A stretch of DNA of 64,000 nucleotides from Gammaproteobacteria bacterium (GTDB lineage Bacteria; Pseudomonadota; Gammaproteobacteria; UBA6429; Thiohalophilaceae): the NCBI GenBank assembly GCA_015491815.1, contig WFVC01000038.1, forward strand, positions 2,095 to 66,094, in the 5' to 3' direction. The notes beneath the pieces are model-generated. The model was not told the origin of the DNA and ran no database searches. It saw nothing but the letters and a program-made list of their open reading frames with translations. The translations under genes were made by a program, and so were the position numbers. This document shows, in pieces, positions 13,499 to 61,118 of the stretch. The first letter of the stretch is position 1, and each line of letters starts with the position of its first letter.

Positions 13499-13514
13499 TG
13501 TCACACAGGTGACA
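13499..13514 (+). promoter_or_regulatory. Operator-like site S0: TGTCACACAGGTGACA (fully palindromic half-sites TGTCA-N6-TGACA)
   Basis: It is part of the 7-4-7 inverted repeat CTGTCAC-ACAG-GTGACAG. It lies about 90 nt upstream of the 12984-13415 gene and just after the Crp/Fnr gene stop. Confidence 0.6.
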
Positions 13515-13572
13515 GACACAGAATATTAAAGATCAACAGCCACTGGCAGAAAACGGTAATAGCTTACGCCAA

Positions 13573-14331
13573 TCAGGAAACCTTCTTCTGTTGTTTCGTA
13601 TGAGCCAAGGCGTCCCCGGCATATTCCTGCAGAACTTCCAGATCTGCAACCTCGGTGTGAAACTTATGTTTGTGTAACACACCCTGTTTTCGCCAGTGCT
13701 GAAGATGTCGATTAACAACCTGACGCACTGAGCCCACCATCCGCGCCAAAGCATCATCATGCAGGTCATTAATTAATTTTAGAGGATGGTGATGGCGACT
13801 ATTGGCGGACTCCGGGTGATGCGGCGCAACATGGCGCAATATTAAACGAGCCAGTCGCGTCATGGTATCGTGCAGAGCAAGATCGGTCGCCAAATCTTCC
13901 ATTTGCCGCATCTGCTCTCCCAGATAAGGCAGAAAATTTCGATTAAATTCATGATGCCGGTCGATCCATGCACGGGCATCCGGTATGGGCACAGAAATCA
14001 GGGCGACATCGTCCAACGCTACTGGTGTAATTTCATGTGGTTGAGTATATAGCAGGGTCGCCATATCAATACCATCACCCGGCCCCAGTAAAAACAGGGT
14101 AATGCTTCGCCCTGTTTCCGGATTGATACGCATCACTTCGAGGCGACCTTCAATCAACAAATAAAAACGCTCCTGAAAAATGGCAGGATCCAGTTGTACG
14201 CCACGACGCCAGGTATCGCGCCGGAATAATGACAACATGTCATCGAGCAACTCGTCCTCCAGTCCTGCAAACAGCGGAGAGTGCGTCAATATATCTTTAC
14301 AATGGCGATAGTAAACAGGATCCCGTTTCAT
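13573..14331 (-). CDS. Crp/Fnr-family transcriptional regulator (cNMP-binding-like sensor plus C-terminal HTH)
   Basis: It has a beta-roll effector domain (FYLLIEGRLEVMRINPETGRSITLFLLGPGDGI) and a C-terminal HTH (DDALARMVGSVRQVVNRHLQHWRKQGVL). It has only one Cys, so it lacks an FNR-type Fe-S cluster motif. Confidence 0.8.
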   Translation of the reverse strand: MKRDPVYYRHCKDILTHSPLFAGLEDELLDDMLSLFRRDTWRRGVQLDPAIFQERFYLLIEGRLEVMRINPETGRSITLFLLGPGDGIDMATLLYTQPHEITPVALDDVALISVPIPDARAWIDRHHEFNRNFLPYLGEQMRQMEDLATDLALHDTMTRLARLILRHVAPHHPESANSRHHHPLKLINDLHDDALARMVGSVRQVVNRHLQHWRKQGVLHKHKFHTEVADLEVLQEYAGDALAHTKQQKKVS

Positions 14332-14516
14332 TTAACTGTCCCCCATGGAACATTTATAAAAGATCTGAAAGCTGGTCATCTAAACTCGATAACCGGATAA
14401 AGGCATTTCAGCAACACCGTGCAAAATTATGATTAATTCCACACGCTTCTTGCGTCTAACTATGCGACAACAGCATAACAGATAAATTCCGTTGACAGGA
14501 TAATGCAACGCTTGAG

Positions 14517-14532
14517 TGTCACCCAGGTTGCA
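14517..14532 (+). promoter_or_regulatory. Operator-like site S1: TGTCACCCAGGTTGCA
   Basis: It lies in the divergent intergenic region between the Crp/Fnr gene (start 14331) and glgP (ATG 14599). Confidence 0.6.
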
Positions 14533-14598
14533 TCGGACTAAAAACAGCTTATATACACTTCTTATACAGAATCTAACTTTAACTTAAGGGTGTATGCG

Positions 14599-17124
14599 AT
14601 GCCCGCCTTTTTACCACGTCCGTTACCGCAGGGACTCGAAGTGCTCACCGAGCTGGCGCTGGATTTGCGCTGGACCTGGAGTCATAGCGCTGATGCGCTC
14701 TGGCAGATGCTCGACAAAGAAGCCTGGGAGCGCAGTAAAAACCCCTGGATACTTTTGCAGGACGTATCTCAGCAGCGTCTGCAGCAGCTTGCCAATGATG
14801 CCGCATTCCGGCGGGAACTGAAACGTCTGTCTGCAGAACGGGACAATTATCTGGCTAATCCCGGCTGGTACAAAGAGGCGCAACCGCAGTTTGATATTGG
14901 CAAGGTCGCCTATTTCAGCATGGAATTCGGTCTTGGCGAAGCCCTGCCTGTCTATGCCGGTGGGCTGGGTATTCTTGCCGGCGATTTTCTTAAAACCGCC
15001 AGCGATCTGGGCATCCCGTTGGTGGGCGTCGGCCTGCTCTACCAGGAAGGCTATTTCCGGCAAATGCTCGATACCGATGGCCGTCAGCTGGCTGTGTATC
15101 CTTATAATGAACCCTCCACGTTACCTATTCAGCCCGTTCTCACTCAGACCGGAAAATGGTTGCATGTGCCCCTGAACCTGCCGGGACGGCAATTAAAGTT
15201 GCGCATCTGGCAGGTAATCGTGGGTCGGGTTCGCCTGTATTTACTGGACAGCAACGATCCACTCAACAGCCCCCGTGATCGCGGCATCACCAACAAACTT
15301 TACGACGCCAGCCACGAACTACGCTTTTTGCAGGAACTGGTGCTCGGCATCGGCGGCTGGCGCCTGTTGAAAGCCATTGGCGAAGAGATTTCAGTCTGTC
15401 ATCTCAATGAAGGACACGCCGCCTTTGTGGTGCTGGAACGCGCGCGCAGCTTTATGGATCAGGCAGGCTGTTCATTTCAGACAGCCCTGTGGGCCACCCG
15501 CGCCAGCAATGTTTTTACCACCCACACGCCGGTCGCGGCGGGTTTCGATACCTTCCCGCCGCAGTTCATCGATAAATATTTCCCGCTATTCCACAATTTC
15601 CTCAGCCATACCGGACTCTCGCTGCAGGCGTTGCTGGCGCTGGGCCGTAAAAATCCGGACGATCCGACGGAAGCATTTAATATGGCTTATCTGGCCATGC
15701 GCGGCTGTGCGCATACGAATGCGGTCAGTCGTCTGCACGGCGAGGTCAGTCGCCAGTTATTCTCTGATCTTTATCCACGCTGGCCACAGGCCGAAGTCCC
15801 GGTCAGCCATGTCACCAACGGCGTACACGTTCCGACATGGGATTCCCCCTGGGCTGATCAGATCTGGACTGAGGCCTGTGGCAAACAACGCTGGCTTGGC
15901 AGCACCGATGCTCTGCACCATTCTATCCAGACGCTGGACGATGAAACTCTGTGGAAGTTACGCGCCAGTGAACGCGAAGATCTGGTGCACTACGCACGCA
16001 AACGTCTGGCGCTGCAACTGGGTCAGGCCGGAGCCAGTCCGGAACAGGTCGAACAGGTGGCGCAGGTGCTGGATCCAAATGCATTAACTCTGGGCTTTGC
16101 CCGACGTTTTGCAAGCTATAAACGACCCAACCTGTTATTACACGATCGCCGGCGTCTGACAGCTTTATTGACGAACCCCGCACGACCGGTGCAGTTGATC
16201 ATTGCGGGTAAGGCGCACCCTGATGATCAAGAAGGCCAACGCATGATTCAGGAGTGGGTCAACTTTGTTCGCCAGCCGGCTATCCGCGGCCATGTTGTTT
16301 TTCTGGAGGATTATGACATTGCGCTGGCGCAACAACTGGTGCAGGGCATCGACGTCTGGATCAATACGCCCCGCCGCCCCTGGGAAGCCAGCGGCACCAG
16401 CGGCATGAAAATATTGGTCAATGGCGGACTCAATCTTTCGGAGCTGGATGGCTGGTGGGCCGAAGCCTGTTCGGAAGAAACCGGCTGGTCGCTGGGCGAC
16501 GGCAGGGAGCATGATGCGGATTTAAGCTGGGATGCCGTGGAAGCCGAACAACTTTATCAGCGTCTGGAAAATGAAATTATCCCCATGTTCTATACTCGGG
16601 ATACACAGGGTCTGCCGCGCGACTGGCTGATGCGTATCCGCAAGAGCATGGTGCAACTGGCGCCGCAATTCAGCAGCAACCGCATGGTGCAGGAATACAT
16701 CCGGCAGCTTTATCACCCCGCCAACACCGCCTATGAAAAACGCCGCGCGCAGCAGGGACAATTGGCCAAACAACTTCACGGCTGGCACAGCACGCTTAAT
16801 CTGCATTGGAAACAGATACACTTCGGCAACCAGACTGTCAACAATACGGATGACGGTTGGCAATTTCAGATACAGGTCTATCTCGGTGAAATTCTGCCTG
16901 AACAAATCCGGGTTCAACTTTACGCCGAGGGAATAGACGCTGACAGCCCTCAGGTGTATGACTGCGACTGCGGAGAAAAAATTACCGGCGCTATTCACGG
17001 TTACTGTTTTTACACAACGATTAGTACTAACCGGCCGGTAACAGATTTTACCGCGCGAGTCATTCCTTATCATGTTAACGCCTGCGTTCCAGCGGAAGTG
17101 CAACTGATTGTCTGGCAACACTGA
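14599..17124 (+). CDS. glgP: Alpha-glucan (glycogen/maltodextrin) phosphorylase, GT35 alpha-glucan family
   Basis: It contains LDLRWTWSH, NEGHAAF, HVTNGVH and the PLP-lysine region EASGTSGMK. The ORF track starts at a GTG (14590); the ATG at 14599 is preferred. Confidence 0.9.
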   Translation: MPAFLPRPLPQGLEVLTELALDLRWTWSHSADALWQMLDKEAWERSKNPWILLQDVSQQRLQQLANDAAFRRELKRLSAERDNYLANPGWYKEAQPQFDIGKVAYFSMEFGLGEALPVYAGGLGILAGDFLKTASDLGIPLVGVGLLYQEGYFRQMLDTDGRQLAVYPYNEPSTLPIQPVLTQTGKWLHVPLNLPGRQLKLRIWQVIVGRVRLYLLDSNDPLNSPRDRGITNKLYDASHELRFLQELVLGIGGWRLLKAIGEEISVCHLNEGHAAFVVLERARSFMDQAGCSFQTALWATRASNVFTTHTPVAAGFDTFPPQFIDKYFPLFHNFLSHTGLSLQALLALGRKNPDDPTEAFNMAYLAMRGCAHTNAVSRLHGEVSRQLFSDLYPRWPQAEVPVSHVTNGVHVPTWDSPWADQIWTEACGKQRWLGSTDALHHSIQTLDDETLWKLRASEREDLVHYARKRLALQLGQAGASPEQVEQVAQVLDPNALTLGFARRFASYKRPNLLLHDRRRLTALLTNPARPVQLIIAGKAHPDDQEGQRMIQEWVNFVRQPAIRGHVVFLEDYDIALAQQLVQGIDVWINTPRRPWEASGTSGMKILVNGGLNLSELDGWWAEACSEETGWSLGDGREHDADLSWDAVEAEQLYQRLENEIIPMFYTRDTQGLPRDWLMRIRKSMVQLAPQFSSNRMVQEYIRQLYHPANTAYEKRRAQQGQLAKQLHGWHSTLNLHWKQIHFGNQTVNNTDDGWQFQIQVYLGEILPEQIRVQLYAEGIDADSPQVYDCDCGEKITGAIHGYCFYTTISTNRPVTDFTARVIPYHVNACVPAEVQLIVWQH

Positions 17125-17601: not shown

Positions 17602-18216
17602 ATGTTTACACTGAACCAATTTGCCTCCTGGTTAACCGACTCTCACTGGCCCTGCATCGTCATCAGCATACTGGTGTTTCTGGAGTCCAGTCCGGTTGTT
17701 GGCCTGTTTATTCCCGGTGTTCTGCTGCTGCCAGCCATTGGCGCACTGTCCGGCAGCAACATGCTGGAGTTTGAAAAAATATTCCTGTGTTGTCTGGCGG
17801 GCGCACTGATGGCGGACAGTCTTGGTTATGCTCTGGGTCGTCTGGGCTATGGCGAATGGCATCACCGCTTCAGCTCCCGAGGGCACAATCGGATCAGGCA
17901 ACAGGCCGGCAATTTTTTACATCACTATGGCGGGGTTGCAATCTTCGTCGGACGCATCATGTGGCTGATTCATCCACTGGTGCCAACGCTGGTGGGCGCG
18001 CTTGGCGCACCGGCCTGGCGATTCTATTTACTGGACACGCTGGCGGTTATTCTCTGGCTGGCGCTGGAATTAGGATTGGGTCACGGCCTGCTGGTCTACA
18101 CGCGACAGTTCACCGGCTCTTTTAGCGACTGGTTAATCATGTCGCTGGGGCTGCTTGTCGTGTTCATCGGAATCTACAGCTGGCGTCGACAATCTTATTT
18201 TCGAGATAATAAATAA
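17602..18216 (+). CDS. DedA/SNARE-associated family membrane protein
   Basis: It has the DedA-type re-entrant region VFLESSPVVGLFIPGVLLLPAIGALSG and multiple TM helices. Its 3' end overlaps the convergent TauE gene by 22 nt. Confidence 0.7.
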   Translation: MFTLNQFASWLTDSHWPCIVISILVFLESSPVVGLFIPGVLLLPAIGALSGSNMLEFEKIFLCCLAGALMADSLGYALGRLGYGEWHHRFSSRGHNRIRQQAGNFLHHYGGVAIFVGRIMWLIHPLVPTLVGALGAPAWRFYLLDTLAVILWLALELGLGHGLLVYTRQFTGSFSDWLIMSLGLLVVFIGIYSWRRQSYFRDNK

Positions 18217-18953
18217 CGAAAACCAATAATCAGCAACAGCACGGCAAACAGGCTACGCAAATGCAATTCCGGCAAGGACAGCGCCAGACGACTGCCCAGC
18301 CAGGCGCCAAGCAGGCCGCCGCTGATCAATCCCGGCAACAACGCCAGACGCACATGTCCATGCCGAAAATTTTCCAGACTTCCCGCCACCACTGCAGGAA
18401 TTCGGGCCGCCAGTGAGCAGCCCTGCGCCATTTGCTGCGGCATGCCGAGCCCCAGAACCAACAGCGGCGCCAACACCGGGCCACCGCTGACCCCCACGCT
18501 ACCGGCGACCAGACCTTCAATAACGCCCACGCCAATCAGATAGCCGATGCGCATCGAGTCGGTTAATTTCCAGTCACCCAGAAATTGTTCCCGCAACAAG
18601 AGAAACAGCGCACCGGTGATAATCACGACACTGAAAATACGACGCAAACGAAGACTGGAAAAATGCTCACTCCAGAGGCCCACAAAGGGCGTCACAATCA
18701 ATGCAGGGACAGCCACCAGCACCACCGCCAGCCAGTCTACCTGCGCAGCCTGCGCGTATAGAAACGTCCCAAACAGCGCAGGAAAAAAGGCTGCCGCCAG
18801 AGCGGTGCCTCGCGCTTCAAATTCAGACAAATGCAACCAGGACAACATCAAAGGGATAGTCAGAGTACCGCCGCCCAGACTGAACAAGCCGCCGCCCAAA
18901 CCGGCCAGCAGACCAATAATCAGAATTTTAATTTGCATGGGCATAGTGTACAT
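18195..18953 (-). CDS. TauE/SafE (TSUP) family anion exporter
   Basis: It is a 252-aa polytopic membrane protein with two Gly-rich repeat halves (GLGGGLFSLGGGTLTIPLM / GSVGVSGGPVLAPLLV). Confidence 0.75.
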   Translation of the reverse strand: MYTMPMQIKILIIGLLAGLGGGLFSLGGGTLTIPLMLSWLHLSEFEARGTALAAAFFPALFGTFLYAQAAQVDWLAVVLVAVPALIVTPFVGLWSEHFSSLRLRRIFSVVIITGALFLLLREQFLGDWKLTDSMRIGYLIGVGVIEGLVAGSVGVSGGPVLAPLLVLGLGMPQQMAQGCSLAARIPAVVAGSLENFRHGHVRLALLPGLISGGLLGAWLGSRLALSLPELHLRSLFAVLLLIIGFRYLLSRK

Positions 18954-18993
18954 TGCTATAAAATTTATTCTATACGCTAAAAAATAATCCGCC

Positions 18994-19009
18994 TGTCACT
19001 CAGGTTGCA
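18994..19009 (+). promoter_or_regulatory. Operator-like site S2: TGTCACTCAGGTTGCA
   Basis: It lies in the divergent intergenic region between the TauE gene (start 18953) and the zinc-ribbon gene (ATG 19099). Confidence 0.6.
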
Positions 19010-19098
19010 TCACCTTCATCCGACTGGGATTAAACTTTCATTAACCTGGTTAAGATAGCAACCATGCCTACGACAATTCAACGACAACGGAGAAAAAC

Positions 19099-19611
19099 AT
19101 GAATAAACCGTCACAACATGATCCGATTGACATACTTGGCGAAGTCTACGAAAAAATGTTCGAGCGCGTAGTCGAAGATTTCCACAAAGCGGAAAAAAAG
19201 ACCGACACCCTGTTACACACGCTTATTGATGAGGCCAGAGACAAGTTTATTGAACTGGGAGAAGTATCAAAAGAAGATGCGGAAAAACTGGGCGACTATC
19301 TCAAACGCGATATGACTCACGCTCTTCACTATTTATCAGAAACCGGCCATGAGCTGAGTGACTGGCTGGGATTTGAAACCGCACTGTATGAAAATGCGAT
19401 ATTTGATCTGCTCTTAAGCGCCGCCGATAAAACCACATTTGAGTTGCTGACTATGAAAGAAGCATTGCAACAGGCGGCAGTCTATCGCACTGGGGAAATT
19501 ACCGGCCCCGGTACGCTGATCTGTGACCAATGCGGGGAAAAGCTGCATTTTCAGAAAGCCGGAAGGATTCCCCCCTGTCCGAAATGTCATGCAACCACGT
19601 TTCATCGTTAA
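19099..19611 (+). CDS. Zinc-ribbon-containing protein (DUF1451-like)
   Basis: It has a helical N-terminal part and the C-terminal CDQCGEKLHF...PPCPKCHATTF Cys4 ribbon. Confidence 0.6.
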   Translation: MNKPSQHDPIDILGEVYEKMFERVVEDFHKAEKKTDTLLHTLIDEARDKFIELGEVSKEDAEKLGDYLKRDMTHALHYLSETGHELSDWLGFETALYENAIFDLLLSAADKTTFELLTMKEALQQAAVYRTGEITGPGTLICDQCGEKLHFQKAGRIPPCPKCHATTFHR

Positions 19612-19740: not shown

Positions 19741-21135
19741 TTACAGTTCATATACCTGATGCAGTTCCGGCATTTCGACTCGGGTATTTTTTAATTTACT
19801 GGAAAAACTTCGCATACTCTCTTCTTCACCATGTACAAGAAAAGTTGTTTTTGGGTTCCCCGTCTGTTGATGCCAGGCCAGCAACTCCGCTTGATCAGCA
19901 TGAGCGGAAAATCCACCGATGGTGTAAATACCAGCGCGCACCGGAATCTCTTCACCAAAAATACGCACCTGTTCAGCTCCGTCAATAATGCGCCGCGCAA
20001 GGGTGCCCTGCGCCGCATAACCGACAAACACCACGCTGTTTTTATGATTCCACAGATTATGTTTCAGGTGATGTCGAACGCGCCCCCCTGTACACATACC
20101 GGAACCGGCCATGATCACCGCACCGCCATCGATCTGATTGATAGCCATAGACTCAGCGGTTTCACGGGTGAAATGCAGGCCGGGTAACTGAAAAGGATCA
20201 TGACCGTTATCTGATACTTTCAGTGTCTCCGCATCAAAACATTCGGGATGACGTTCGAAAATTTGAGTGGCAGAAATTGCCATAGGCGAATCGAGAAAGA
20301 CATTGGTGAAATGTTTGATCTGTCTGCTTTCTATCCCTTCGCGCAGGTAATAAAGAATTTCCTGTGCGCGCTCCAGCGCAAAAGTGGGAATGATGACATT
20401 GCCGCCTCGACCCAGGCTGTCGTTAATCACCACATACAGTTCTTCAATCGAGGGTTGCAGTTGCTTGTGCAGACGATCGCCATAAGTAGTTTCCATTACT
20501 ACCGTATCCACCTTTGGCGGCGTTGCCGGATTACGTAAAATCGCGCGTCCGCTATAACCAAGATCACCGGAGAACAATAACCGATGCGATCGCCCGTTTT
20601 CCTCCAGCTCCAGTAAAATACTGGCCGAACCAAGAATATGACCCGCATCAATAAAAGTGACGCGAATTCCCGGCGCCAGATCCACAGGCTGATCGTAACT
20701 AATGCGTCGACCAAAATATTCAAGACTGTTAAGCGCATCCAGTGTGGTATAAAGCGGCTCAATTTTTTTTGCATGATTGCCGCCATGACGACGCGCCTTG
20801 CGCATCTGGTAACGGGCCTCTTCTTCCTGCAGCCCGGCCGCGTCCAGCATCACCAGTCGCGCCAGTTCAACTGAAGCCGCTGTAGTGATCACCTCACCTG
20901 TAAAACCACGTTTAGCCAACAGGGGGATGCGCCCGCAATGATCAAGATGGGCATGCGTTAATAACAGATAATCAATCTCCGCCGGTTCAAATCCGAAAGC
21001 TGCAGAATTCTCCTCGGCAATTTCATGCCCGCCCTGATACAGGCCACAATCAATCAAAATCCGTTTGCCCGCGCATTCAAGCAAATGACAGGAGCCTGTG
21101 ACACTCTGATCAGCGCCGTGAAATGATATTTTCAT
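19741..21135 (-). CDS. MBL-fold metallo-hydrolase of the beta-CASP family (RNase J/CPSF-like putative ribonuclease)
   Basis: It has the HAHLDHCGRIP motif, a beta-CASP-sized insertion and a C-terminal H (…FSAHADQAELL…). Its ATG overlaps the upstream LOG gene stop (ATGA). Confidence 0.75.
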   Translation of the reverse strand: MKISFHGADQSVTGSCHLLECAGKRILIDCGLYQGGHEIAEENSAAFGFEPAEIDYLLLTHAHLDHCGRIPLLAKRGFTGEVITTAASVELARLVMLDAAGLQEEEARYQMRKARRHGGNHAKKIEPLYTTLDALNSLEYFGRRISYDQPVDLAPGIRVTFIDAGHILGSASILLELEENGRSHRLLFSGDLGYSGRAILRNPATPPKVDTVVMETTYGDRLHKQLQPSIEELYVVINDSLGRGGNVIIPTFALERAQEILYYLREGIESRQIKHFTNVFLDSPMAISATQIFERHPECFDAETLKVSDNGHDPFQLPGLHFTRETAESMAINQIDGGAVIMAGSGMCTGGRVRHHLKHNLWNHKNSVVFVGYAAQGTLARRIIDGAEQVRIFGEEIPVRAGIYTIGGFSAHADQAELLAWHQQTGNPKTTFLVHGEEESMRSFSSKLKNTRVEMPELHQVYEL

Positions 21136-22115: not shown

Positions 22116-22156
22116 TGGAATTGGGGCTTATTTTAAAATGTATATTTCCCCTTTGC

Positions 22157-22172
22157 TGCTACCTGGGTGACA
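22157..22172 (-). promoter_or_regulatory. Operator-like site S3: TGTCACCCAGGTAGCA (read on the minus strand)
   Basis: It lies in the divergent intergenic region between the LOG/beta-CASP operon (start 22115) and glgX (ATG 22236). Confidence 0.55.
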
Positions 22173-22235
22173 GCGAGCGCAGATTAAATAGCCGGATAAT
22201 CCGAACATACAGAAAAAGCAGGGAACCGCGAGGAC

Positions 22236-24287
22236 ATGTTTATGAACAACTGGGAAGCACGGGAAGGCGCGCCCTGGCCGTTAGGGGTTAACTTCATTGC
22301 CTCACAACAGGCATGGAATTTCGCTCTCTACAGTAAACATGCAACAGAGGTGACGCTGCATCTGTATCAGGAAAACGATATCCAGCATCCGGTTGACAGC
22401 TATGTCTTTAATCCTTTACTGAACAAATCCGGTCGAGTCTGGCACTGCCGCCTGCCGCTTGCAAGAGTGGACGGCGCACATTACTACGCCTATCAGGTTG
22501 ACGGCCCCTTTGATCCCGTCAATGGTCATCGTTTTGATTCACAAAAACAATTGCTGGATCCCTATAGCCGAGCCGTGTTTTTCCCACCGGGGTTTGATCG
22601 TCGGGCCGCCATTGAATCCGGTTCAAATATCGGCAAGGCGCCATTGAGCGTGCTTCCTGCACATATCCATGATCGCATCCAAAACCCGCTTCCAAAACCT
22701 CAACATACTCATGATCTGATCATTTATGAACTGCATGTAAAAGGGTTTACCCAACATGCCGGTTCCGCCGTTGCTGCAGACAGGCGCGGTACGTTTTCGG
22801 GGGTGATCGAAAAGATTCCCTATTTACAGTCTCTCGGCATTACCGCAGTTGAACTAATGCCGGTTTTCCAGTTTGACCCACAGGGAAATGACTACTGGGG
22901 CTACATGCCACTGAGTTTCTTCGCACCACACCACCACTATGGCAAGACTGATTCACCCGTCGCCCTGCTCGATGAGCTCCGGGAAATAGTTCATGCCTTT
23001 CATCATGCCAATATCGAAGTCATTCTGGATGTGGTTTATAACCATACCGGCGAAGGCAATGAGCAGGGACCGACCTACAGTTTTCGCGGGCTTGATAACA
23101 CCACCTATTACCTGCTCGAAAATGATCGACGTTATTATCGCAATGACGCCGGCACCGGCAATGTGCTGCATACCGCCAATCGCTATGTGCGCAGCATGGT
23201 GCTCGACAGTCTGCGTTACTGGGTCAAAGACATGCGAGTGGATGGTTTCCGTTTTGATCTGGCGTCGATCTTTACCCGCCGTAGCGACGGCTTAGTTAAT
23301 CTTGAAGATGCGCCGATCATCTCGGCAATTCGTTCCGATCCTGATCTTGCCGGGGTGCGTTTGATCGCGGAGGCCTGGGATATCTCCAGTTATCAACTCG
23401 GACGCAGTTTTCCCGGTATCAGCTGGCAACAGTGGAACGGGCGCTTTCGCGATGACATTCGCCGTTTCGTGCGCGGTGATAATGGTCTAATCAATTCACT
23501 CATACAGCGGCTTTACGGCAGCGATGATCTTTTTCCGGATTCGCGCATGGACGCCTACCACCCTTACCAGAGCATCAACTTTATCACCGCCCATGACGGT
23601 TTCACACTTTATGATCTGGTCGCCTATAACAACAAACATAATGAAATTAACGGTCATGGCAACACCGATGGCAGTGATCATAATTTTTCATGGAATGGTG
23701 GCTGGGAGGGCGACACCGCCGTTCCCGATGCCGTGATGCATTTACGCAAACGTCAGATCAAAAATTTCTGCGCACTGCTGTTGCTCGCCAACGGCACGCC
23801 GATGTTGCGCGCCGGTGATGAATTCATGCAGACCCAGTTCGGCAACAACAACCCCTACAATCAGGATAACGAAATCAGCTGGCTAAACTGGGATCGGCTT
23901 GAGAGCAACCCGGATATGTTTCGTTTCTTTCAGAAGATGATCGCCTTTCGCAAGGCCCATCCCTCATTGGGGCGCAGTCGTTTCTGGCGTGAAGATGTGC
24001 GTTGGTATGGCGTCGGCCCGGATGTCGATCGTTCATGGTATTCCCATAGTCTTGCCTATCATCTCAGCGGCGCTTCACAAAATGATCGAGATATCTATGT
24101 CATGATTAACGCATGGAGGGAAGATCTTACTTTCACTATTCAGGAAGGTCATGCGAATGACTGGCATCGCGTCATCGATACGGCTGAAACCTCTCCTCAG
24201 GACATTGTTGCCGACGCTCAGGCGCGCCCGTTACAAACTCTGAGCTATCGAGTCAGCGCGCGTTCGATTGTGGTATTAATATCCTGA
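22236..24287 (+). CDS. glgX: Glycogen debranching enzyme (isoamylase-type, GH13)
   Basis: It contains REGAPWPLGVNF...NFALYS (the CBM48 start), GFRFDLA, EAWD and the FITAHDGFTL catalytic regions. Confidence 0.9.
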   Translation: MFMNNWEAREGAPWPLGVNFIASQQAWNFALYSKHATEVTLHLYQENDIQHPVDSYVFNPLLNKSGRVWHCRLPLARVDGAHYYAYQVDGPFDPVNGHRFDSQKQLLDPYSRAVFFPPGFDRRAAIESGSNIGKAPLSVLPAHIHDRIQNPLPKPQHTHDLIIYELHVKGFTQHAGSAVAADRRGTFSGVIEKIPYLQSLGITAVELMPVFQFDPQGNDYWGYMPLSFFAPHHHYGKTDSPVALLDELREIVHAFHHANIEVILDVVYNHTGEGNEQGPTYSFRGLDNTTYYLLENDRRYYRNDAGTGNVLHTANRYVRSMVLDSLRYWVKDMRVDGFRFDLASIFTRRSDGLVNLEDAPIISAIRSDPDLAGVRLIAEAWDISSYQLGRSFPGISWQQWNGRFRDDIRRFVRGDNGLINSLIQRLYGSDDLFPDSRMDAYHPYQSINFITAHDGFTLYDLVAYNNKHNEINGHGNTDGSDHNFSWNGGWEGDTAVPDAVMHLRKRQIKNFCALLLLANGTPMLRAGDEFMQTQFGNNNPYNQDNEISWLNWDRLESNPDMFRFFQKMIAFRKAHPSLGRSRFWREDVRWYGVGPDVDRSWYSHSLAYHLSGASQNDRDIYVMINAWREDLTFTIQEGHANDWHRVIDTAETSPQDIVADAQARPLQTLSYRVSARSIVVLIS

Positions 24288-24303: not shown

Positions 24304-24891
24304 TCAGTGTTCAACCGGCAGGGTAATCACCGAATCGGCGCCCGTCGATCCAAGGCGCATGGTGCAGTGATCCGCCTGTTCCGGATCACAATGTAGAATC
24401 ACAACATAATGATCAGTTTCGATTGCCCGATGAATCTGTTTAATCGCCGATGCGGGTACGCCAATTTGATGCAGGGCGCCGGCCAGTTGCGTCAATGCCG
24501 CCGCCCCCGCCATCGCGCCACCACTTACCACCCCGCCGGCGATGGCGCCACCCAGCGCTTCCACCATCGGACCGGCAGCCAGCAACGGTCCAATGCCCGG
24601 CAACACAAAAAGTCCGGTTGCCCCGGCCAGCATCCCCCAGAGCACCCCCCAGACAACGCCGTGTTTACCCCAGGCTTTGACCCGTTCAGAGGTGTTGGTA
24701 TAGGCCAGCCCCAGCATGTCATCGCCTGTGCCACCAGCTTTACGCAACAGCGAAAGTCGATCAGCGGGAAATTCATCCTCAATCAATTTTTCAATGGTTT
24801 GCAGCGCCTTTTCTTCACTGCTATAAATACCAATCGCCAGCACCAGGCGGGCATGTTCATATTTGTTTTCTGTCTTCTCCAGATCCGCCAT
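24304..24891 (-). CDS. General stress protein 17M (YflT)-like protein with a Gly-rich membrane segment
   Basis: It contains GIYSSEEKALQTIEKL, then LPGIGPLLAAGPMVEALGGAIAGG, then GVPASAIKQIHRAIETDHYVVILH. This parallels YflT (GVY..EEA..AIE; IPGIGP..AAGP; GIPEE.A..Y...V..G..L). Confidence 0.6.
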   Translation of the reverse strand: MADLEKTENKYEHARLVLAIGIYSSEEKALQTIEKLIEDEFPADRLSLLRKAGGTGDDMLGLAYTNTSERVKAWGKHGVVWGVLWGMLAGATGLFVLPGIGPLLAAGPMVEALGGAIAGGVVSGGAMAGAAALTQLAGALHQIGVPASAIKQIHRAIETDHYVVILHCDPEQADHCTMRLGSTGADSVITLPVEH

Positions 24892-24997
24892 GAGATGCCG
24901 CCTTTTCTTTGCTGAACGATTTGTTTCACCCGTGATATTCTCCGGGGAAAACGGTCATTGTCTGCATCGCACTTTATAGAACTCTTTATGCTTTGGC

Positions 24998-25013
24998 TGT
25001 AACCTGGGTGACA
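24998..25013 (-). promoter_or_regulatory. Operator-like site S4: TGTCACCCAGGTTACA (read on the minus strand)
   Basis: It lies in the divergent intergenic region between the YflT-like gene (start 24891) and ackA (ATG 25047). The site ends 34 nt before the ackA ATG. Confidence 0.55.
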
Positions 25014-25046
25014 GATGAGGCGATTGAATACGCGCACAATTCGTTC

Positions 25047-28636: not shown

Positions 28637-28645
28637 AAAATAGAG

Positions 28646-31209: not shown

Positions 31210-31222
31210 AGGAGATAACACC

Positions 31223-38637: not shown

Positions 38638-38653
38638 TGTCATCCAGGTTGCA
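38638..38653 (+). promoter_or_regulatory. Operator-like site S5: TGTCATCCAGGTTGCA
   Basis: It lies 36 nt after the fba stop and upstream of the APC permease/H+-ATPase genes. A REP doublet and MITE copy C lie between the site and the permease ATG. Confidence 0.55.
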
Positions 38654-42871: not shown

Positions 42872-42887
42872 TGTCATCCAGGTTGCA
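42872..42887 (+). promoter_or_regulatory. Operator-like site S6: TGTCATCCAGGTTGCA (the 18-mer is identical to S5)
   Basis: It lies 10 nt after the ATPase stop and 61 nt before the CMD-family gene ATG. Confidence 0.6.
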
Positions 42888-47993: not shown

Positions 47994-48004
47994 ACGATAA
48001 AACT

Positions 48005-48322
48005 ATGTTTATACGCCTTATCATTACACAACTATTAACCCTGAGCATACTGTTCAGCAATATCGCCTGGGCAATGGATGAGTGCAGCTGGTTTACCAAT
48101 GTATCCGGGCAGGAGATGAGTCAGACTGCCACTCCCCCTTCAGATAATGGTTCGCTAACGGGTTCTTGCAACAGCTATTGTATTGGCTGGATCCATCTTT
48201 TGTATATTAATTATCAGGCCTCTTCTATCAACACCATTACCCATCATTTTGATGGGATGCCGAAATTTTCATTTTATCATTCTCTGCAACGCAAACCCCC
48301 TACCGAACCTCCACAGGCCTGA
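48005..48322 (+). CDS. Small exported hypothetical protein (possibly CzcI-like)
   Basis: It has a signal peptide (LTLSILFSNIAWA) and lies between the metal ATPase and czcC. I have no firm family assignment. Confidence 0.4.
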   Translation: MFIRLIITQLLTLSILFSNIAWAMDECSWFTNVSGQEMSQTATPPSDNGSLTGSCNSYCIGWIHLLYINYQASSINTITHHFDGMPKFSFYHSLQRKPPTEPPQA

Positions 48323-48389
48323 GTTCCTTTTGTAACCCAGACTATATTACCGTGGTCATTTGTTATGCCTTCAAAAAAGGACTCGTTTC

Positions 48390-49679: not shown

Positions 49680-50779
49680 AAATATATATAAACAGATTAT
49701 TCATACTTCTTTTTATAGTTACCAGCATGCCTGTTTTTGCAGAAGAAACATCCTCTGAAGAAGCGCAGGGCATTCCTGAAATGACGCCTGCGCAACGTCA
49801 GGCAATGGGTATCGTCAGCGCTGCGGTCGGCTATCGTAGATTAAACAAAGAGATCATCGCCCCCGGTGAGGTAACGGTGAATATCTATCGCAGCTCTCAG
49901 GTCACCACGCGAATCCGCGCACAGATCATCAAACGATATGCGCGCATGGGGGATGAGGTCAAAGCCGGACAAAAATTGCTGACCCTCTCCAGTGTGGATA
50001 TGGCCGATGCGCAAAGCCGGCTGGTGGTTGCCGAGCGTGAATGGCAACGGGTGAAAAAACTGGGGCGCAAGGTGGTTTCCGAGCGGCGCTATGTTGAAGC
50101 ACAGGTTAATCGCCAGCAGGCCTATGCCAGCGTGCTGGCTTATGGCATGACCGAGGCGCAGATTAATGCTCTGCTGAAACAGGGGGACGCCTCCAGAGCC
50201 ACGGGCATGTTTGATCTCTTGAGTTCTCAGCAGGGAACGGTGATCAGCGATCACTTTGTAATCGGGCAGGTGGTTGAACCGGGTCAGGTGCTGATGGAGA
50301 TCAGTGATGAATCTCAGCTCTGGGTGGAAACCCAGATCAACCCTGTTGATGTCATCCACGTTAAAGCAGGCAATCCGGCGCGCATCAATCCCGGCGCGAA
50401 CGAATGGCTAAAGGGAAAAGTAGTACAGATTCATCGCCGTGTTGATGAAACCACGCGCACCCTGCCTGTACGCATTGAAGTCGATAACCGGCAGGATTTA
50501 TTGCGCCCCGGTCAATTTGTCAAAGTCGCCCTGCAAACATCGCTGAGTGCGCAGGTCATCGCCGCCCCCACCTCGGCGGTTACCCTGTTACAGGGGGAAC
50601 AGGTGGTGTTTGTTGTGCACGGCAATGAAATCAGCCCGCAACTGGTGGAAACCGGTGAAGTGCGTGGCGACTGGATTGAAATAAAAAACGGTCTAAAAAA
50701 AGATAGTGAGATTGTTGTCAAAGGCATGTTCTTGCTCAAGTCGCTGTTGTTGAAATCACAGATTGGCGATACCGATTAG
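49676..50779 (+). CDS. czcB: RND efflux periplasmic adaptor (CzcB/CusB-like)
   Basis: It has HlyD_D23/biotinyl-lipoyl-like motifs (…VKAGQKLLTLSS…, GQFVKVAL). Its start overlaps the czcC stop (ATGA). Confidence 0.8.
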   Translation: MKIYINRLFILLFIVTSMPVFAEETSSEEAQGIPEMTPAQRQAMGIVSAAVGYRRLNKEIIAPGEVTVNIYRSSQVTTRIRAQIIKRYARMGDEVKAGQKLLTLSSVDMADAQSRLVVAEREWQRVKKLGRKVVSERRYVEAQVNRQQAYASVLAYGMTEAQINALLKQGDASRATGMFDLLSSQQGTVISDHFVIGQVVEPGQVLMEISDESQLWVETQINPVDVIHVKAGNPARINPGANEWLKGKVVQIHRRVDETTRTLPVRIEVDNRQDLLRPGQFVKVALQTSLSAQVIAAPTSAVTLLQGEQVVFVVHGNEISPQLVETGEVRGDWIEIKNGLKKDSEIVVKGMFLLKSLLLKSQIGDTD

Positions 50780-50789
50780 GAGATGGAAC

Positions 50790-53700
50790 ATGTTAAATAA
50801 ACTGGTTGAAATATCTCTGCGCTATAAATTTCTGGTCATCGTTAGTTTTATGGTGGTGGCGTTTCTCGGCTGGCGTGCGGTCAACAGCATATCCATTGAC
50901 GCCTTTCCCGATGTTACGCCGGTGCAGGTCAATGTTTATACCGAAGCAGCAGGACTGGCGGCGGAGGATATCGAACAACTGCTGACTTTTCCGGTGGAGT
51001 CCGGCATGGCCGGCTTGCCGGGCGTGCAGGAAATACGGTCGGTGAGTCTGTTCGGTTTATCCTATGTGTCGGTCTATTTTGAAGACGGTATGGATATTTA
51101 TTTTGCCCGGCGGCTGGTGATGGAGCGCCTGCAGGAAATCGGTGATCGCATTCCGGAGGGCTACGGCACGCCGGAAATGGGTCCCAACACCTCGGGGCTG
51201 GGACAGGTATTCTGGTACACCGTTGAACGCGCCGATGAAAAACTCAATGCCGATATTTCCGATATGGATCTGCGCACGGTGCAGGACTGGAGCGTGCGCC
51301 TGATGTTGCGCACCGCGCCGGGAGTCGATGACGTCATGTCATGGGGCGGACAGGAGCGGCAGTTTCAGGTGGTGATTGATCCATTGAAACTGATTGAATA
51401 CGACCTGAGTTTTCGGGATATCATTGAATTACTGGAAACCAATAATCGTCAGGTCGGTGGCCAGTATATTAATCAGGGCGCCGAACAATATCTGGTGCGC
51501 GGTCTGGGGCTGGTAAAAGACGAAACCGATATCGGCAATATTGTGGTCAAGGTGGAAGACGGTACGCCCGTCTATCTGCGCGAGGTCGCAACGATTTCAC
51601 AACAACCGGCGCTGCGTTCAGGCGCGGTCACCCGTGATGGTAAAGAAGTGGTGCTGGGCATGGCGCTGGCGCGCATTGGTGAAAACGCCAAAAATGTTGT
51701 CGATAACGTAAAGGAAAAAATGGCGGTGGTTGAGTCCACCCTGCCCGAAGGCATGGTGGTCACCCCCATTTATGATCGCACCGATCTGGTGGAAAAAGCG
51801 GTCAATACCGCAGTCAGCGCGCTGGTGGAAGGTTCGATTCTGGTGGCCATTGTGCTGTTTCTGTTTCTGGGCGAGTTGCGTTCGGCGCTGGTGGTGATCG
51901 CCGCCCTGCCGCTGGCGATGCTCATCGCCTTTATTATGATGGGAGAAGCGGGTCTGAGCGCCAACCTGATGTCTCTGGCGGGACTGGCTATCGGCATTGG
52001 CATGATGGTCGATGGCGCGGTGGTGTTAACGGAAAACGCTTTCCGCATTATGGCCGAACGACGGGAAAAGGGAGAAAAGGTAAATCGAACGGCGGCGGTG
52101 CTCACTGCGGCGCAGGAAGTCGCCAACCCGGTTGCCTTCGCTATTTTAATTATCATCGTGGTGTTTTTGCCGTTGTTCAGTCTCAGCGGGCTGGAAGGCA
52201 AACTGTTCAAACCCATGGCCTTTAATATCAGCTTCGCCATGGCCGGTTCCCTGTTGCTGACCCTGACAATTATCCCGGTGCTGGCGGCCATGATTCTCAA
52301 ACCCAAAGAAGAACGGGACACCTGGCTGGTGAGCCGGATCAAACGCGCTTATCTGCCCACTCTGGCCTGGTCGTTGGCGAATAAAGGCAAGGTCGTTACC
52401 TCTGCGATTATCCTGTTGATCGCAAGTCTGGCGCTGTTTCCCTTACTGGGTAAGGAGTTTATGCCGCAGTTGCAGGAAGGCTCGATTATGTGGCGCATCG
52501 TCTCCATTCCCTCGACCTCGCTGGAAACAACGATTGAAATATCCAAAGACGTGGAAAAAGCCCTGAACGCCTTTCCCGAGGTGAACAGCACCATCGCCAT
52601 GATCGGCCGCGCCGAAAAAGGCGAAACCGCGGATGTGAATTACATGGAAATTTTTACCGATCTTAAACCCCATGATGAATGGGAAAATCCACGCAGCTAT
52701 GAGGCGCTGGCCGTAGAAATGCGTGAGCAACTGGAAAAAGTCGCGCCGACATCGGTGATCAGTTTCACCCAGCCGATCCAGATGCGGGTGGAAGAGCTGA
52801 TTTCCGGCGTGCGCGCCACGCTTGCGGTCAAACTCTACGGCGAAGATCTGACAGAGCTGGATCGCCTGAGTCAGAAAATTAAAACCGCGATTGCAAAGGT
52901 GCCGGGAGTGGCTGATCTTTCACTGGAAGCCAACTTGGGCAAACCCCAGATCCGCATTCAGGTTAACCGCGAAGCCCTGTCGCGCTATGGCATGAACGCC
53001 GATGAAGTGCTTACCGTGGTGCGCACCGGAATCGGCAACGATCCGGTTTCCAGTTTGATTCGGGGCATCAAACGATTTGATATTACCGTGCGCCTTGATG
53101 ATGCGGCCAAACTGTCGGTCGAGGCGATTCGAAATATTCCGCTGCGCACCAGCAATGGCGCCATTGTACCCCTGAAACAGGTGGCGGACATTTCAGTCGC
53201 CGAAGGTTATTCCTTTATTCGTCGTGAACAGTTACAGCGCTACGCGGTCATTCAAATGGACGTGCGCGGCCGCGATGTCGACGGTTTTGTCGCTGACGCC
53301 AACGCCATGATCAAACAGGAGATTGAGATGCCACCGGGCTACTGGCTGGAATGGGGCGGCGCGTTTGAAAATCAGCAGCGTGCGCTCAAGCGGCTGGCGC
53401 TGATTGTTCCACTGACGATTTTCTTTATTTTCGTGCTGCTCTACACCGCCTTTAACTCGGTGAAATACGCCACCCTGATTATCGCCAATGTGCCTTTCGC
53501 CACCATCGGCGGACTGGTGTCCCTGTTTATTACCGGGCAATACCTGTCGGTGCCCTCGGCCATCGGCTTTATCGCCGTATTCGGTGTGGCCATGCTCAAC
53601 GGCATCGTCCTGATCAGTTTTTTAAATGAACTTCAGGAAAAAGGACTGTCTGTAAGAGAGGCGGTGCGCAGGGGCGCGGAATTGAGATTGCGGCCGGTGA

Positions 53701-53885
53701 TGATGACCGCCAGCGTGGCGATTCTCGGTCTGATTCCCATGCTGCTGTCCACCGGAGTCGGCGCGGAAACCCAGCGACCATTGGCGACCGTGGTCGTGGG
53801 TGGATTGATTACCTCAACCCTGTTGACGCTCATATTGCTGCCGGTGATTTATGAGTGGATGGAAAGCCGTAGTAACCGGAAATAG
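50790..53885 (+). CDS. czcA: CusA/CzcA-family heavy-metal efflux RND pump
   Basis: It begins MLNKLVEISLRYKFLVIV..., has the 12-TM HME-RND architecture and …AIGIGMMVDGAVV…. The ATG at 50790 follows TAGGAGA. Confidence 0.9.
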   Translation: MLNKLVEISLRYKFLVIVSFMVVAFLGWRAVNSISIDAFPDVTPVQVNVYTEAAGLAAEDIEQLLTFPVESGMAGLPGVQEIRSVSLFGLSYVSVYFEDGMDIYFARRLVMERLQEIGDRIPEGYGTPEMGPNTSGLGQVFWYTVERADEKLNADISDMDLRTVQDWSVRLMLRTAPGVDDVMSWGGQERQFQVVIDPLKLIEYDLSFRDIIELLETNNRQVGGQYINQGAEQYLVRGLGLVKDETDIGNIVVKVEDGTPVYLREVATISQQPALRSGAVTRDGKEVVLGMALARIGENAKNVVDNVKEKMAVVESTLPEGMVVTPIYDRTDLVEKAVNTAVSALVEGSILVAIVLFLFLGELRSALVVIAALPLAMLIAFIMMGEAGLSANLMSLAGLAIGIGMMVDGAVVLTENAFRIMAERREKGEKVNRTAAVLTAAQEVANPVAFAILIIIVVFLPLFSLSGLEGKLFKPMAFNISFAMAGSLLLTLTIIPVLAAMILKPKEERDTWLVSRIKRAYLPTLAWSLANKGKVVTSAIILLIASLALFPLLGKEFMPQLQEGSIMWRIVSIPSTSLETTIEISKDVEKALNAFPEVNSTIAMIGRAEKGETADVNYMEIFTDLKPHDEWENPRSYEALAVEMREQLEKVAPTSVISFTQPIQMRVEELISGVRATLAVKLYGEDLTELDRLSQKIKTAIAKVPGVADLSLEANLGKPQIRIQVNREALSRYGMNADEVLTVVRTGIGNDPVSSLIRGIKRFDITVRLDDAAKLSVEAIRNIPLRTSNGAIVPLKQVADISVAEGYSFIRREQLQRYAVIQMDVRGRDVDGFVADANAMIKQEIEMPPGYWLEWGGAFENQQRALKRLALIVPLTIFFIFVLLYTAFNSVKYATLIIANVPFATIGGLVSLFITGQYLSVPSAIGFIAVFGVAMLNGIVLISFLNELQEKGLSVREAVRRGAELRLRPVMMTASVAILGLIPMLLSTGVGAETQRPLATVVVGGLITSTLLTLILLPVIYEWMESRSNRK

Positions 53886-59730: not shown

Positions 59731-59794
59731 TGTATTGTTCCGTCCAAGTATAAAGTTTCAAATACCAGGGGCTGTTTGAAAATACATATTGCAT

Positions 59795-59837
59795 GTACGA
59801 CTTCAGTCGTACATGTGCGGCTGAAATCACACCTACA
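59795..59837 (+). repeat. REP-like hairpin doublet (locus R4)
   Basis: GTACGACTTCAGTCGTAC followed by ATGTGCGGCTGAAATCACACCTACA, between hlyD and the ABC ATPase gene. Confidence 0.7.
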
Positions 59838-59879
59838 GGCTATGCCATGCATTCATAAGTGCACTGGTATTTGGAACTT

Positions 59880-60917
59880 TCATTTAGCCTCGCAGTTTTT
59901 GTCGGCGATATCCTGATTCACCGGCGCTTGATCAATCGCAATATGCACCGTTGCCGGCATGCCCAGACGTAATTCATCCTGCGGATTACAGGCAAAAATA
60001 CGCACCGAGTAAACCAGCCGGGTGCGCAATTCCGGCGTTTGTACATTCTTCGGCGTAAACTCGGCGGTCGGTGAAATATAACCCACCCAGCCCGGATAAG
60101 CCCGGCCCGGAAAACTGTCAGTATAAATCATGGCCTTTGAACCAAGGGTGATTTTTCCAAGCATGGGTTCCGGCAAATAGGCGCGCACCCAGACCGGATT
60201 AATAAACGCCAGCGTCAACGCCGGTGTCTGCGGAAAAGCCATATCACCCGGTTCGAGAATACGATTGCGGATCACACCCTCGGTCGGCGCGTACAGGTTG
60301 GCGTCATCCAGTTGTTGTTCGGCCAGAATCACCGCCGCCTTGCGTCTGGCGAGTTCGGCCTGTGCGATCGCAATGTCTTCCTTACGCGGCCCCAGCTCCA
60401 GCAAATTCAAGGCCTGCTTCACCGCTTCCATTTCCGCTTTGGCTGAATCTGCTGCGGCGCGGGCGTTTTCGACATCTTCAGGCGAAACCAGTTTTTTCTT
60501 CAACATCGGCAACAGCCGTTTATACGTCGCGCGAGCAGAAGTAGCCCGGGCTTTGGCGGCATTGAGTTCGGCTCGCGCCTTACTGATTTCCTCCTTCCGA
60601 CTGCCTGCCTGCAATTTATTCAGATTCTGGCGCTGGGCTTCCCATTGCGCCTGTGCTTCGGCCAGCCGCGCCCGTAGAATTTCGGTATGCAACCGCGCAA
60701 GCAACTGTCCCTTTTTAACGCGATCGCCTTCCTGTACAAAAACTGTCTCGATATGTTCACTACTGTTAAACGCCAGCTGTGCTTCGCGAATGTCCACATT
60801 ACCATAAAGGATCAATATATTTTGATCACCGTTCTGCTGCCGCTGCCAGTAATAAATGACGCCAACCCCCAGAACAAGTATTAAGGCAAACAGAAAAAAT
60901 TTTTTATTCATTCGCAT
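59880..60917 (-). CDS. HlyD-family membrane fusion protein (YbhG-like)
   Basis: It has an N-terminal TM, lipoyl-like motifs (VQEGDRVKKGQLLARL), a long coiled coil and a beta-barrel domain. The ATG at 60917 follows AAAGGAAAG; the track start is 60938. Confidence 0.8.
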   Translation of the reverse strand: MRMNKKFFLFALILVLGVGVIYYWQRQQNGDQNILILYGNVDIREAQLAFNSSEHIETVFVQEGDRVKKGQLLARLHTEILRARLAEAQAQWEAQRQNLNKLQAGSRKEEISKARAELNAAKARATSARATYKRLLPMLKKKLVSPEDVENARAAADSAKAEMEAVKQALNLLELGPRKEDIAIAQAELARRKAAVILAEQQLDDANLYAPTEGVIRNRILEPGDMAFPQTPALTLAFINPVWVRAYLPEPMLGKITLGSKAMIYTDSFPGRAYPGWVGYISPTAEFTPKNVQTPELRTRLVYSVRIFACNPQDELRLGMPATVHIAIDQAPVNQDIADKNCEAK

Positions 60918-61102
60918 CTTTCCTTTGTTGCTTCGCATTCATATACAGGGCTAAAACCGTAGCCATAGAGCCGGCCATGCATTTATGCGTGAACTCATAG
61001 CTGGAACAGGTAAATAGTGATAAAACATTAACACAGGCGCTGTTATCCGTCACCGAGAAACATGGGTTGAGTAGAAATATACAGAGAAAAAATATTTCAG
61101 CA

Positions 61103-61118
61103 TGTCACCTGCATGACA
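61103..61118 (-). promoter_or_regulatory. Operator-like site S7: TGTCATGCAGGTGACA (read on the minus strand; half-sites TGTCA-N6-TGACA)
   Basis: It lies in the 405-bp divergent region between the hlyD operon and the response regulator gene. Confidence 0.5.

Follow-up and report, generated by a model that had tools for sequence, protein, structure and literature searches.

A recurrent 16-bp intergenic sequence in a gammaproteobacterial contig is a candidate class II operator of a Crp/Fnr-family regulator

Results

The stretch analyzed here, 64,000 nucleotides of contig WFVC01000038.1 (assembly GCA_015491815.1; Gammaproteobacteria, Thiohalophilaceae; hereafter the window, at its full length), carries eight copies of a 16-bp sequence in front of, among others, genes for glycogen use, acetate formation, ion transport and stress response, together with the gene for a Crp/Fnr-family transcription regulator that is the candidate protein to act at these sites (Table 1). 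The copies had been noticed in a reading of the sequence by eye, the original prediction, which took them for the operator of a regulon. The eight 16-bp sites are real: a pattern search with TGTCAYNCAGGTNNCA over both strands recovers exactly eight exact copies, the same ones listed in the original prediction, where the high coordinate of each minus-strand site was quoted, and the twelve invariant positions plus one pyrimidine position were counted correctly. The arithmetic chance expectation for the 16-mer in the window is ~0.004 copies, in agreement with the claimed value of well below 0.01, and none of 100 dinucleotide-preserving shuffles of the window contains a match. A search allowing two mismatches adds 3 matches, for a chance level of ~2.2, and a position weight matrix (PWM) assigns 22.9-28.0 bits to the eight sites and at most 15.3 to any other position in the window. 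The sequences extending 45 bp to either side of the eight sites show no similarity between copies, so that the sites are indeed not pieces of a larger repeat. All eight are intergenic, as originally stated, in a window that is ~11% non-coding (p ~2e-8); S4 falls inside the mechanically called ackA open reading frame (ORF) because this ORF is over-extended from a TTG start, and becomes intergenic once the start is placed at ATG 25047, very probably the correct one.

The gene identities initially assigned are borne out by Pfam and NCBIfam for glgP, TauE, DUF1451, beta-CASP, LOG, glgX, ackA, xfp, the APC permease, the H+-ATPase, CMD/AhpD-like and E1 alpha/beta, as well as for HlyD, the two-component system, the Crp/Fnr regulator and the downstream pta-ppsA-eno-gpm-FBA cluster. 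The 143-aa and 195-aa proteins of the window yield only weak YflT/DUF1269 matches; orthologs of the YflT-like protein in two related loci (L010, L015) pass the Pfam cut-off.

Table 1. Candidate operator sites, predicted -10 hexamers, and the candidate regulator with its core target in the window
Feature	Position	Strand	Sequence	Gene or context	Gap between site and hexamer (bp)
S0	13499..13514	- (matched + at pattern search)	TGTCACACAGGTGACA	Palindromic operator; promoter site of the YflT-like gene 12984-13415(-)	
S0 -10	13472-13477	-	CAAAAT	YflT-like	21
S1	14517..14532	+	TGTCACCCAGGTTGCA	Operator oriented toward glgP 14590-17124	
S1 -10	14554-14559	+	TACACT	glgP	21
S2	18994..19009	+		Operator between TauE 18195-18953(-) and DUF1451 19099-19611(+)	
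S2 -10	19031-19036	+	TAAACT	DUF1451	21
S2 -10	18967-18972	-	TAGAAT	TauE	21
S3	22157..22172	-		Operator between LOG/beta-CASP 22115 to 19741(-) and glgX 22236-24287(+)	
S3 -10	22130-22135	-	TAAAAT	LOG	21
S3 -10	22195-22200	+	GATAAT	glgX	22
S4	24998..25013	-		Operator between YflT/DUF1269-like gene 24304-24891(-) and ackA-xfp cluster (+)	
S4 -10	24971-24976	-	TAAAGT	195-aa YflT/DUF1269-like protein	21
S4 -10	25035-25040	+	CACAAT	ackA	21
S5	38638..38653	+		Operator before APC permease 38876-40363 and type IIIA H+-ATPase 40397-42862	
S5 -10	38675-38680	+	CACGAT	APC permease	21
S6	42872..42887	+		Operator before CMD/AhpD-like and E1 alpha/beta genes 42948-45352	
S6 -10	42909-42914	+	CACAAT	CMD	21
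S7	61103..61118	-		Palindromic operator between HlyD/ABC (-) and response regulator/histidine kinase genes (+)	
S7 -10	61140-61145	+	TAAACT	Response regulator	21
S7 -10	61076-61081	-	TATATT	HlyD	21
YflT-like small stress protein	12984..13415	-		143 aa; core conserved target, immediately downstream of the regulator	
Candidate cognate regulator	13573..14331	-	Recognition helix GSVRQVVNRHLQ	Crp/Fnr-family, 252 aa	
Predicted regulator target sequence			TGTCACCCAGGTGACA		

The regulator consists of a cyclic nucleotide-binding-type domain (PF00027, cNMP_binding) and a DNA-binding domain (PF13545, HTH_Crp_2), and S0 lies 59 bp past its stop codon. An identical protein is encoded in metagenome-assembled genome (MAG) contigs of uncultured Gammaproteobacteria; homologs number in the hundreds, and the best 120 among them, at 68-99% identity, are nearly all MAG or metagenome proteins, one coming from the cultured Thiogranum longum. 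By profile comparison, the best relatives in the PDB are CRP of Mycobacterium tuberculosis and GlxR (E ~1e-20), CooA-1 (2e-11) and NtcA, and no NCBIfam equivalog comes near its cut-off for this protein. The recognition helix, GSVRQVVNR, has R, Q and R at the positions equivalent to R180, E181 and R185 of CRP.

Scanning one genome per species with an alignment of the regulator yielded 40 related loci, ~31 with orthologs at 70-87% identity and nine with distant paralogs at 36-52%. The orthologs come from Thiohalophilus, Thiohalobacter, Thiogranum, Sedimenticola, Thioalkalispiraceae and Thiotrichaceae MAGs. Almost every orthologous locus, but none of the nine paralog loci, contains the strict pattern or a close variant of it; likewise, 59 further sites scoring at least 17.5 bits with the PWM turned up in the ortholog-bearing loci, and none of that strength and type where the paralogs reside. 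Thus, phylogenetic footprinting shows the motif to be kept in the orthologous intergenic regions of ~30 other genomes. The best conserved site, to which S0 corresponds, lies past the 3' end of the regulator gene, ahead of the YflT-like gene, and its sequence, TGTCACYCAGGTGACA, is palindromic, perfectly or nearly so; the palindrome neighbors the regulator gene in essentially all of the ~30 orthologous loci, and the YflT-like gene is preceded by the palindrome in almost all of them, S0 being the most conserved of the window sites.

The targets recur as well, namely, the YflT-like gene, the H+-ATPase and APC permease (L009, L017, L026, L027, L028, L032, L070), ppsA, glgP (L012, L033), LOG/beta-CASP (LOG in L017 and L027), eno and VTT/TauE. 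Further targets in the relatives include genes for a CbpA-type DnaJ protein, SpoIIAA-Usp, DUF308, a Na+/H+ exchanger, an M90 peptidase, rubrerythrin, Hsp20 and a holin-4-family membrane protein. In Thiogranum longum, a cultured sulfur oxidizer, three sites were found, preceding SpoIIAA-Usp, a cbpA-merR2-ppsA-DUF308-glgP-APC operon and the YflT-like gene, respectively.

Pooling the 8 window sites with the 59 from related loci gives a set of 67, the consensus of which is the extended palindrome TGTCACC-CA-GGTGACA. Positions 1-5, 12, 15 and 16 are essentially invariant: T1, T3 and C15 occur in all 67 sites, G2 and A16 in no fewer than 66, and position 4 is C in 64. The original description of S0 and S7 as TGTCA-N6-TGACA palindromes is confirmed; as for the extension proposed there, TGTCACN-CA-GGTGACA, the palindromy stood and the sequence is refined to the longer TGTCACC-N2-GGTGACA, which accounts for the invariant center seen in that first reading. 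The site is an inverted repeat with the 5-6-5 geometry and the TGT-N10-ACA frame of Crp/Fnr-family operators.

The asymmetric copies are oriented, with the degenerate TTGCA or TTACA half facing the promoter. When 27 asymmetric sites (right half TTGCA, TTACA or TAGCA) were aligned in their own orientation, a TANNNT hexamer was found to start at a distance of 21 bp downstream in 15 of them and of 22 bp in 5; for NANNNT, the corresponding numbers are 20 and 7, with other offsets represented by ~0-1 occurrences each (binomial p <=1e-17, against a generous AT-rich background). The palindromic sites show the identical -10 spacing toward the YflT-like gene, and each of the eight window sites is followed by a hexamer at a gap of 21-22. 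A same-strand gene is located within 400 bp ahead of 25 of the 27 asymmetric sites, so that the degenerate half-site is the promoter-proximal one; at unidirectional promoters, this half is systematically degenerate, GGTTGCA or GGTTACA. There is no recognizable -35 hexamer at these promoters, and TTGCAN does not qualify as one given that its spacer to a -10 at gap 21 would be 20 bp. With the -10 hexamer set at -12 to -7, the 16-bp site extends from -49 to -34 and is centered at -41.5; a site so placed, combined with a -10 element and no -35, is the canonical arrangement of class II activation, as far as predicted promoters can tell. Many of the predicted -10 hexamers, in the window and in the related loci (L004-L036), end in CT (CATACT, TACACT, CACACT, TAGACT); these recall the -10 preferred by sigma-S, so that a stationary-phase sigma factor may read the regulon.

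Four of the five divergent regions of the window (S2, S3, S4, S7) have a predicted -10 on both sides and look like single-operator bidirectional promoters. A precedent for one CRP site serving divergent promoters is malX-malI. At the fifth, S1, only the glgP side fits, as the opposite side, toward the regulator gene, offers no -10 at the required distance; the regulator gene itself is, therefore, probably not class II activated, and we rejected class II autoregulation at this site. In relatives, the upstream site would, by predicted promoter spacing, drive a divergent cbpA-like gene rather than the regulator gene.

We also scanned metagenome contigs for exact occurrences of one 16-mer, TGTCACCCAGGTTGCA, and inspected 80 loci among the matches listed. 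Among these, a -10 at gap 20-22 accompanies 13 of 21 intergenic and 5 of 60 coding matches (Fisher p = 2.6e-6). The intergenic matches precede orthologs of xfp (85-86%; L054, L102), DUF1451 (79-84%; L056, L092), the H+-ATPase (78%), ppsA, CMD (86%; L112) and the holin-4-like gene. Most of the matches listed lie inside genes of unrelated organisms (GC 38-71%) and lack a -10 at the right spacing; since the 16-mer was searched in a very large collection, most in-gene matches are chance occurrences. Thus, the matches split cleanly between coding and intergenic DNA, the promoter geometry going with the latter, and the 16-mer looks functional only in intergenic DNA of this clade.

Discussion

We consider it likely that the 16-mer is the operator of a dimeric transcription activator of the Crp/Fnr family, most probably the regulator encoded next to S0. 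The candidate regulon operator put forward in the original prediction is supported by the footprinting, the unrelated flanks, the coding/intergenic split and the Crp/Fnr geometry, all of the checks suggested there that could be made in silico having turned out favorably, and the 5-6-5 geometry invoked there agrees with the 16-bp length of the site, with its placement at -41.5 and with the recognition helix; binding, activation rather than repression, and the transcription starts are what we infer from these sequence features. The full target would be the extended palindrome cTGTCACC-N2-GGTGACAg, each predicted site being centered ~-41.5 from the putative transcription start, with a sigma-70-type -10 hexamer 21-22 bp downstream and the -35 hexamer absent. 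With the -10 at this distance and the -35 missing, the bound dimer would replace -35 recognition and recruit RNA polymerase, that is, activation would be of class II, as with CRP, FNR and NtcA, and in several divergent regions, one site would serve two back-to-back promoters. The regulon would combine the use of stored glycogen (glgP, glgX), acetate formation with a gain of ATP (xfp, ackA and pta, along with ppsA, eno, gpm and FBA), the homeostasis of ions and pH (the plasma-membrane-type H+-ATPase and the APC permease, joined in relatives by the Na+/H+ exchanger and the DUF308 protein) and stress proteins (YflT-like, Usp, Hsp20, CbpA, rubrerythrin). Taken as a whole, it resembles a programme by which chemolithoautotrophic sulfur oxidizers would survive when energy, oxygen or electron donors are limiting.

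Several points weigh against this interpretation. The -41.5 position is based on predicted -10 hexamers alone; S5 precedes the permease start by as much as 223 bp and is followed by a weak -10, CACGAT; some of the sites in related loci fall inside short or over-extended ORFs of a crude gene calling; and the within-genome ratio of intergenic to coding sites covers only the 64-kb window and ~0.45 Mb of related loci. The AlphaFold model of the regulator, computed from a 27-sequence alignment, is too poor to be informative on a ligand (mean pLDDT 62.6, with the DNA-binding domain below 50), and another Crp/Fnr paralog elsewhere in the genome could be the true binder.

This last point leads to the first alternative, under which the operator is genuine but is bound by such a paralog or by an unrelated dimeric helix-turn-helix (HTH) protein. 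Crp/Fnr paralogs do coexist in related genomes (L031 contains a second copy, L039 two in tandem), and the adjacency of regulator and motif is circumstantial. Nevertheless, we find a different binder improbable, because this adjacency holds in essentially all orthologous loci, the R-Q pair of the helix fits the TGTC half-site as it does in CooA (PMC545781), and the paralogs with R-V carry GTAAC-type sites at the equivalent place. These distant paralogs, 36-41% identical to the regulator, have R-V instead of R-Q in the same helix position, and their loci contain TGTAAC...GTTACA-type sites just downstream of the regulator gene (L043 2691, L039 5371, L042 10929, L038 4171). In CRP-DNA structures, the Glu181-equivalent residue contacts the base that corresponds to motif position 4. 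Helix and base thus covary at this position, Q with C and V with A, which suggests that the R-V paralogs with GTAAC-type sites represent a sister regulon separated by a one-base change in specificity.

The next alternative retains the same protein and has it act mainly as a repressor by occluding the -35 region. The site, at ~-49 to -34, does overlap the would-be contact of sigma region 4, and Crp/Fnr-family proteins are capable of repression, both activation and repression having been predicted for HcpR (PMC545781). However, site and -10 are separated by a precise 21-22 bp, like those of class II NtcA promoters (PMC3898017), a recognizable -35 hexamer is absent, and a repressor site would not need a single-base register with the -10 over ~60 promoters, so that we judge repression as the main mode quite unlikely. 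Both a different binder and repression are less likely than activation by the adjacent regulator. It is very doubtful that the 16-mer represents the core of a REP/MITE-like dispersed repeat, serves as an uptake sequence or is related to methylation: it is a short palindrome repeated in intergenic DNA, with CCAGG and a CCWGG center, but it occurs once per promoter between unrelated flanks, in a fixed register with the -10, and is conserved before orthologous genes in many genomes. Finally, the notion that the asymmetric TGTCAC-N5-TTGCA copies are variant sigma-54 promoters (consensus TGGCAC-N5-TTGCA, with GG at -24 and GC at -12), with which S1, S2, S5 and S6 agree in the 6-5-5 spacing and in 10 of 11 consensus letters, has next to no chance of being correct and is contradicted by position 3, which is T in 67/67 sites and never G, leaving no -24 GG, by the missing -12 GC (41 of the 67 sites have GTGACA, and the 48 with A at position 14, i.e., GTGACA or TTACA, lack it), by the sigma-70-type -10 that follows at a fixed distance, and by the palindromic sites, which, judging from the predicted -10s, work in both directions.

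The nearest characterized operators are those of CooA and Cmr. CooA, the CO-sensing activator of Rhodospirillum rubrum and Desulfovibrio, belongs to the same family and shares the R-Q helix pair with the regulator; in a profile alignment (hhalign) with an R. rubrum CooA sequence that is 100% identical to PDB entry 1ft9, the R-Q aligns with CooA R177-Q178. CooA sites are 16-bp palindromes with TGTC...GACA ends, TGTCGGCnnGCCGACA (PMC545781), ends that are also given elsewhere (PMC4705688). By contrast, the inner half-site is CACC in our motif and CGGC in CooA, and at the profile level, the regulator is weakly similar to CooA-1 (E 2e-11) and to R. rubrum CooA (1e-4). A CooA-like heme sensor was rejected: in the same type of alignment, CooA Cys75 and His77 correspond to Asp89 and Ala91 of the regulator. 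There are no CO-dehydrogenase (coo) genes among the regulon targets found. The M. tuberculosis Crp/Fnr-family protein Cmr (Rv1675c) binds TGTCA-N6-(C/T)GACA, and its regulon overlaps a dormancy/stress regulon that includes a Usp protein (PMC4705688). Nevertheless, the Cmr helix, GAQRPSINK (PMC4705688), is unlike that of the regulator; the Cmr site has four critical positions only, with a free center, whereas our motif has a conserved center and a strict class II register; and, as compared by description, the phylum and the target genes of Cmr are unrelated to those of this regulon.

The predicted promoter architecture is identical to that of the class II promoters of cyanobacterial NtcA, with a TGT-N10-ACA-type site at -41.5 and no -35 (PMC3898017): the NtcA site is 'centered at about 41.5 nucleotides upstream', and a -10 of the form TAN3T follows ~22 nt after TAC in the absence of a -35 box (PMC3898017). 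NtcA is also the best NCBIfam match of the regulator (TIGR03697), at 28.1 bits versus a cut-off of 244.95. This score is far from the equivalog level, the GTA-N8-TAC site is missing, and the half-site is TGTCAC rather than TGTA, in front of a carbon, energy and stress rather than a nitrogen regulon; hence, the architecture is all that is common, and identity with NtcA was rejected.

Class II promoters of Escherichia coli CRP and FNR likewise involve a dimer, a 5-6-5 inverted repeat and a center at -41.5, as predicted here, but their sites, TGTGA for CRP and TTGAT-N4-ATCAA for FNR, both differ from our motif. The regulator is not CRP, in which E72, R82 and S83 contact cAMP: where CRP has the phosphate-binding Arg82/Ser83 segment, the regulator has an invariant P-H99-E ('PHEVTP' aligned with 'PRTSSA' of M. 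tuberculosis CRP), the NCBIfam CRP score is 20.9 versus a cut-off of 266, and TGTGA-N6-TCACA is incompatible with a C at position 4 in 64/67 sites. Nor is it FNR, lacking the four Cys residues of the [4Fe-4S] cluster; the one cysteine that 27 orthologs have in common is Cys11, part of an H-C-K motif. Given that cAMP-, heme- and Fe-S-binding residues are all absent, the protein is not a cAMP, CO or O2 sensor of known type; the regulon content suggests that the signal may lie in energy, oxygen or redox limitation, or in acid stress. Full-text literature searches turned up no description of the motif, or of the regulon in the relevant genera. Thus, the mechanism is ordinary for the Crp/Fnr family, and it is the member, the specificity and the regulon that are new.

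It is tempting, and we do so tentatively, this being a conjecture that may well prove wrong, to see in the regulator a separate Crp/Fnr subfamily that senses a new signal (the thiol/redox state, for example, or the energy charge or pH of the cytoplasm) and acts as the master switch of a dormancy-like programme in chemolithoautotrophic sulfur oxidizers. An N-terminal His-Cys is invariant in the regulator, and where the cAMP site would be, there is a pocket lined by Asp, Asp and His. If this is true, stalled respiration would lead to fermentation of stored glycogen to acetate via phosphoketolase, and the ATP so obtained would be spent on a eukaryote-type plasma-membrane H+-ATPase that keeps the membrane energized. 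The carriers of the motif (Thiohalophilus, Thiohalobacter, Thiogranum, Sedimenticola, and Thioalkalispiraceae and Thiotrichaceae relatives) are abundant sulfur oxidizers of sediments and vents, exposed to changing levels of oxygen and sulfide, and little is known of their survival when they cannot respire; for that non-respiring state, the regulon offers a concrete gene list and a candidate master regulator. Because Thiogranum longum is in culture and carries the system, the prediction is directly testable. Independently of the signal, the pairing of Q with C and V with A is a clean example of covariation between helix residue and base.

Further observations on genes of the window

The H+-ATPase that follows S5 is a type IIIA plasma-membrane proton-efflux P-type pump (TIGR01647, 978 bits versus a cut-off of 615), i.e., of the fungal and plant type, here encoded in a gammaproteobacterium and a conserved member of the regulon.

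The same-strand cluster at 25047-38602 comprises ackA, xfp, a pyridine-nucleotide-disulfide oxidoreductase gene, pta, a PBP-like gene, ppsA, eno, gpm and class I FBA. No further strong motif site is present in it, so that the genes downstream of S4 possibly make up a single transcription unit or a small number of them; sites of their own are present at ppsA and eno in relatives. The proposed ackA start is located 7 nt past the predicted -10 and is not preceded by a Shine-Dalgarno sequence, so that the ackA-xfp transcript may be leaderless. Within the same cluster, a putative 344-aa ORF (30887-31921) without a Pfam match overlaps the 3' part of the pta ORF and occupies most of the 757-bp gap upstream of the PBP-like gene.

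For the beta-CASP protein (19741-21135), the best NCBIfam match is the model of the type VII CRISPR-associated Cas14 MBL/beta-CASP protein, at 389 bits versus a cut-off of 800. The protein is probably no more than a beta-CASP RNase whose gene shares a transcript with the LOG-family gene, and the beta-CASP/LOG gene pair is conserved in relatives.

A metal-resistance cluster at 45655-53885, consisting of genes for an ArsR-family regulator, a P1B-type ATPase, an outer-membrane efflux protein and a 1040-aa RND-type pump, carries no motif site and seems to be unrelated to the regulon.

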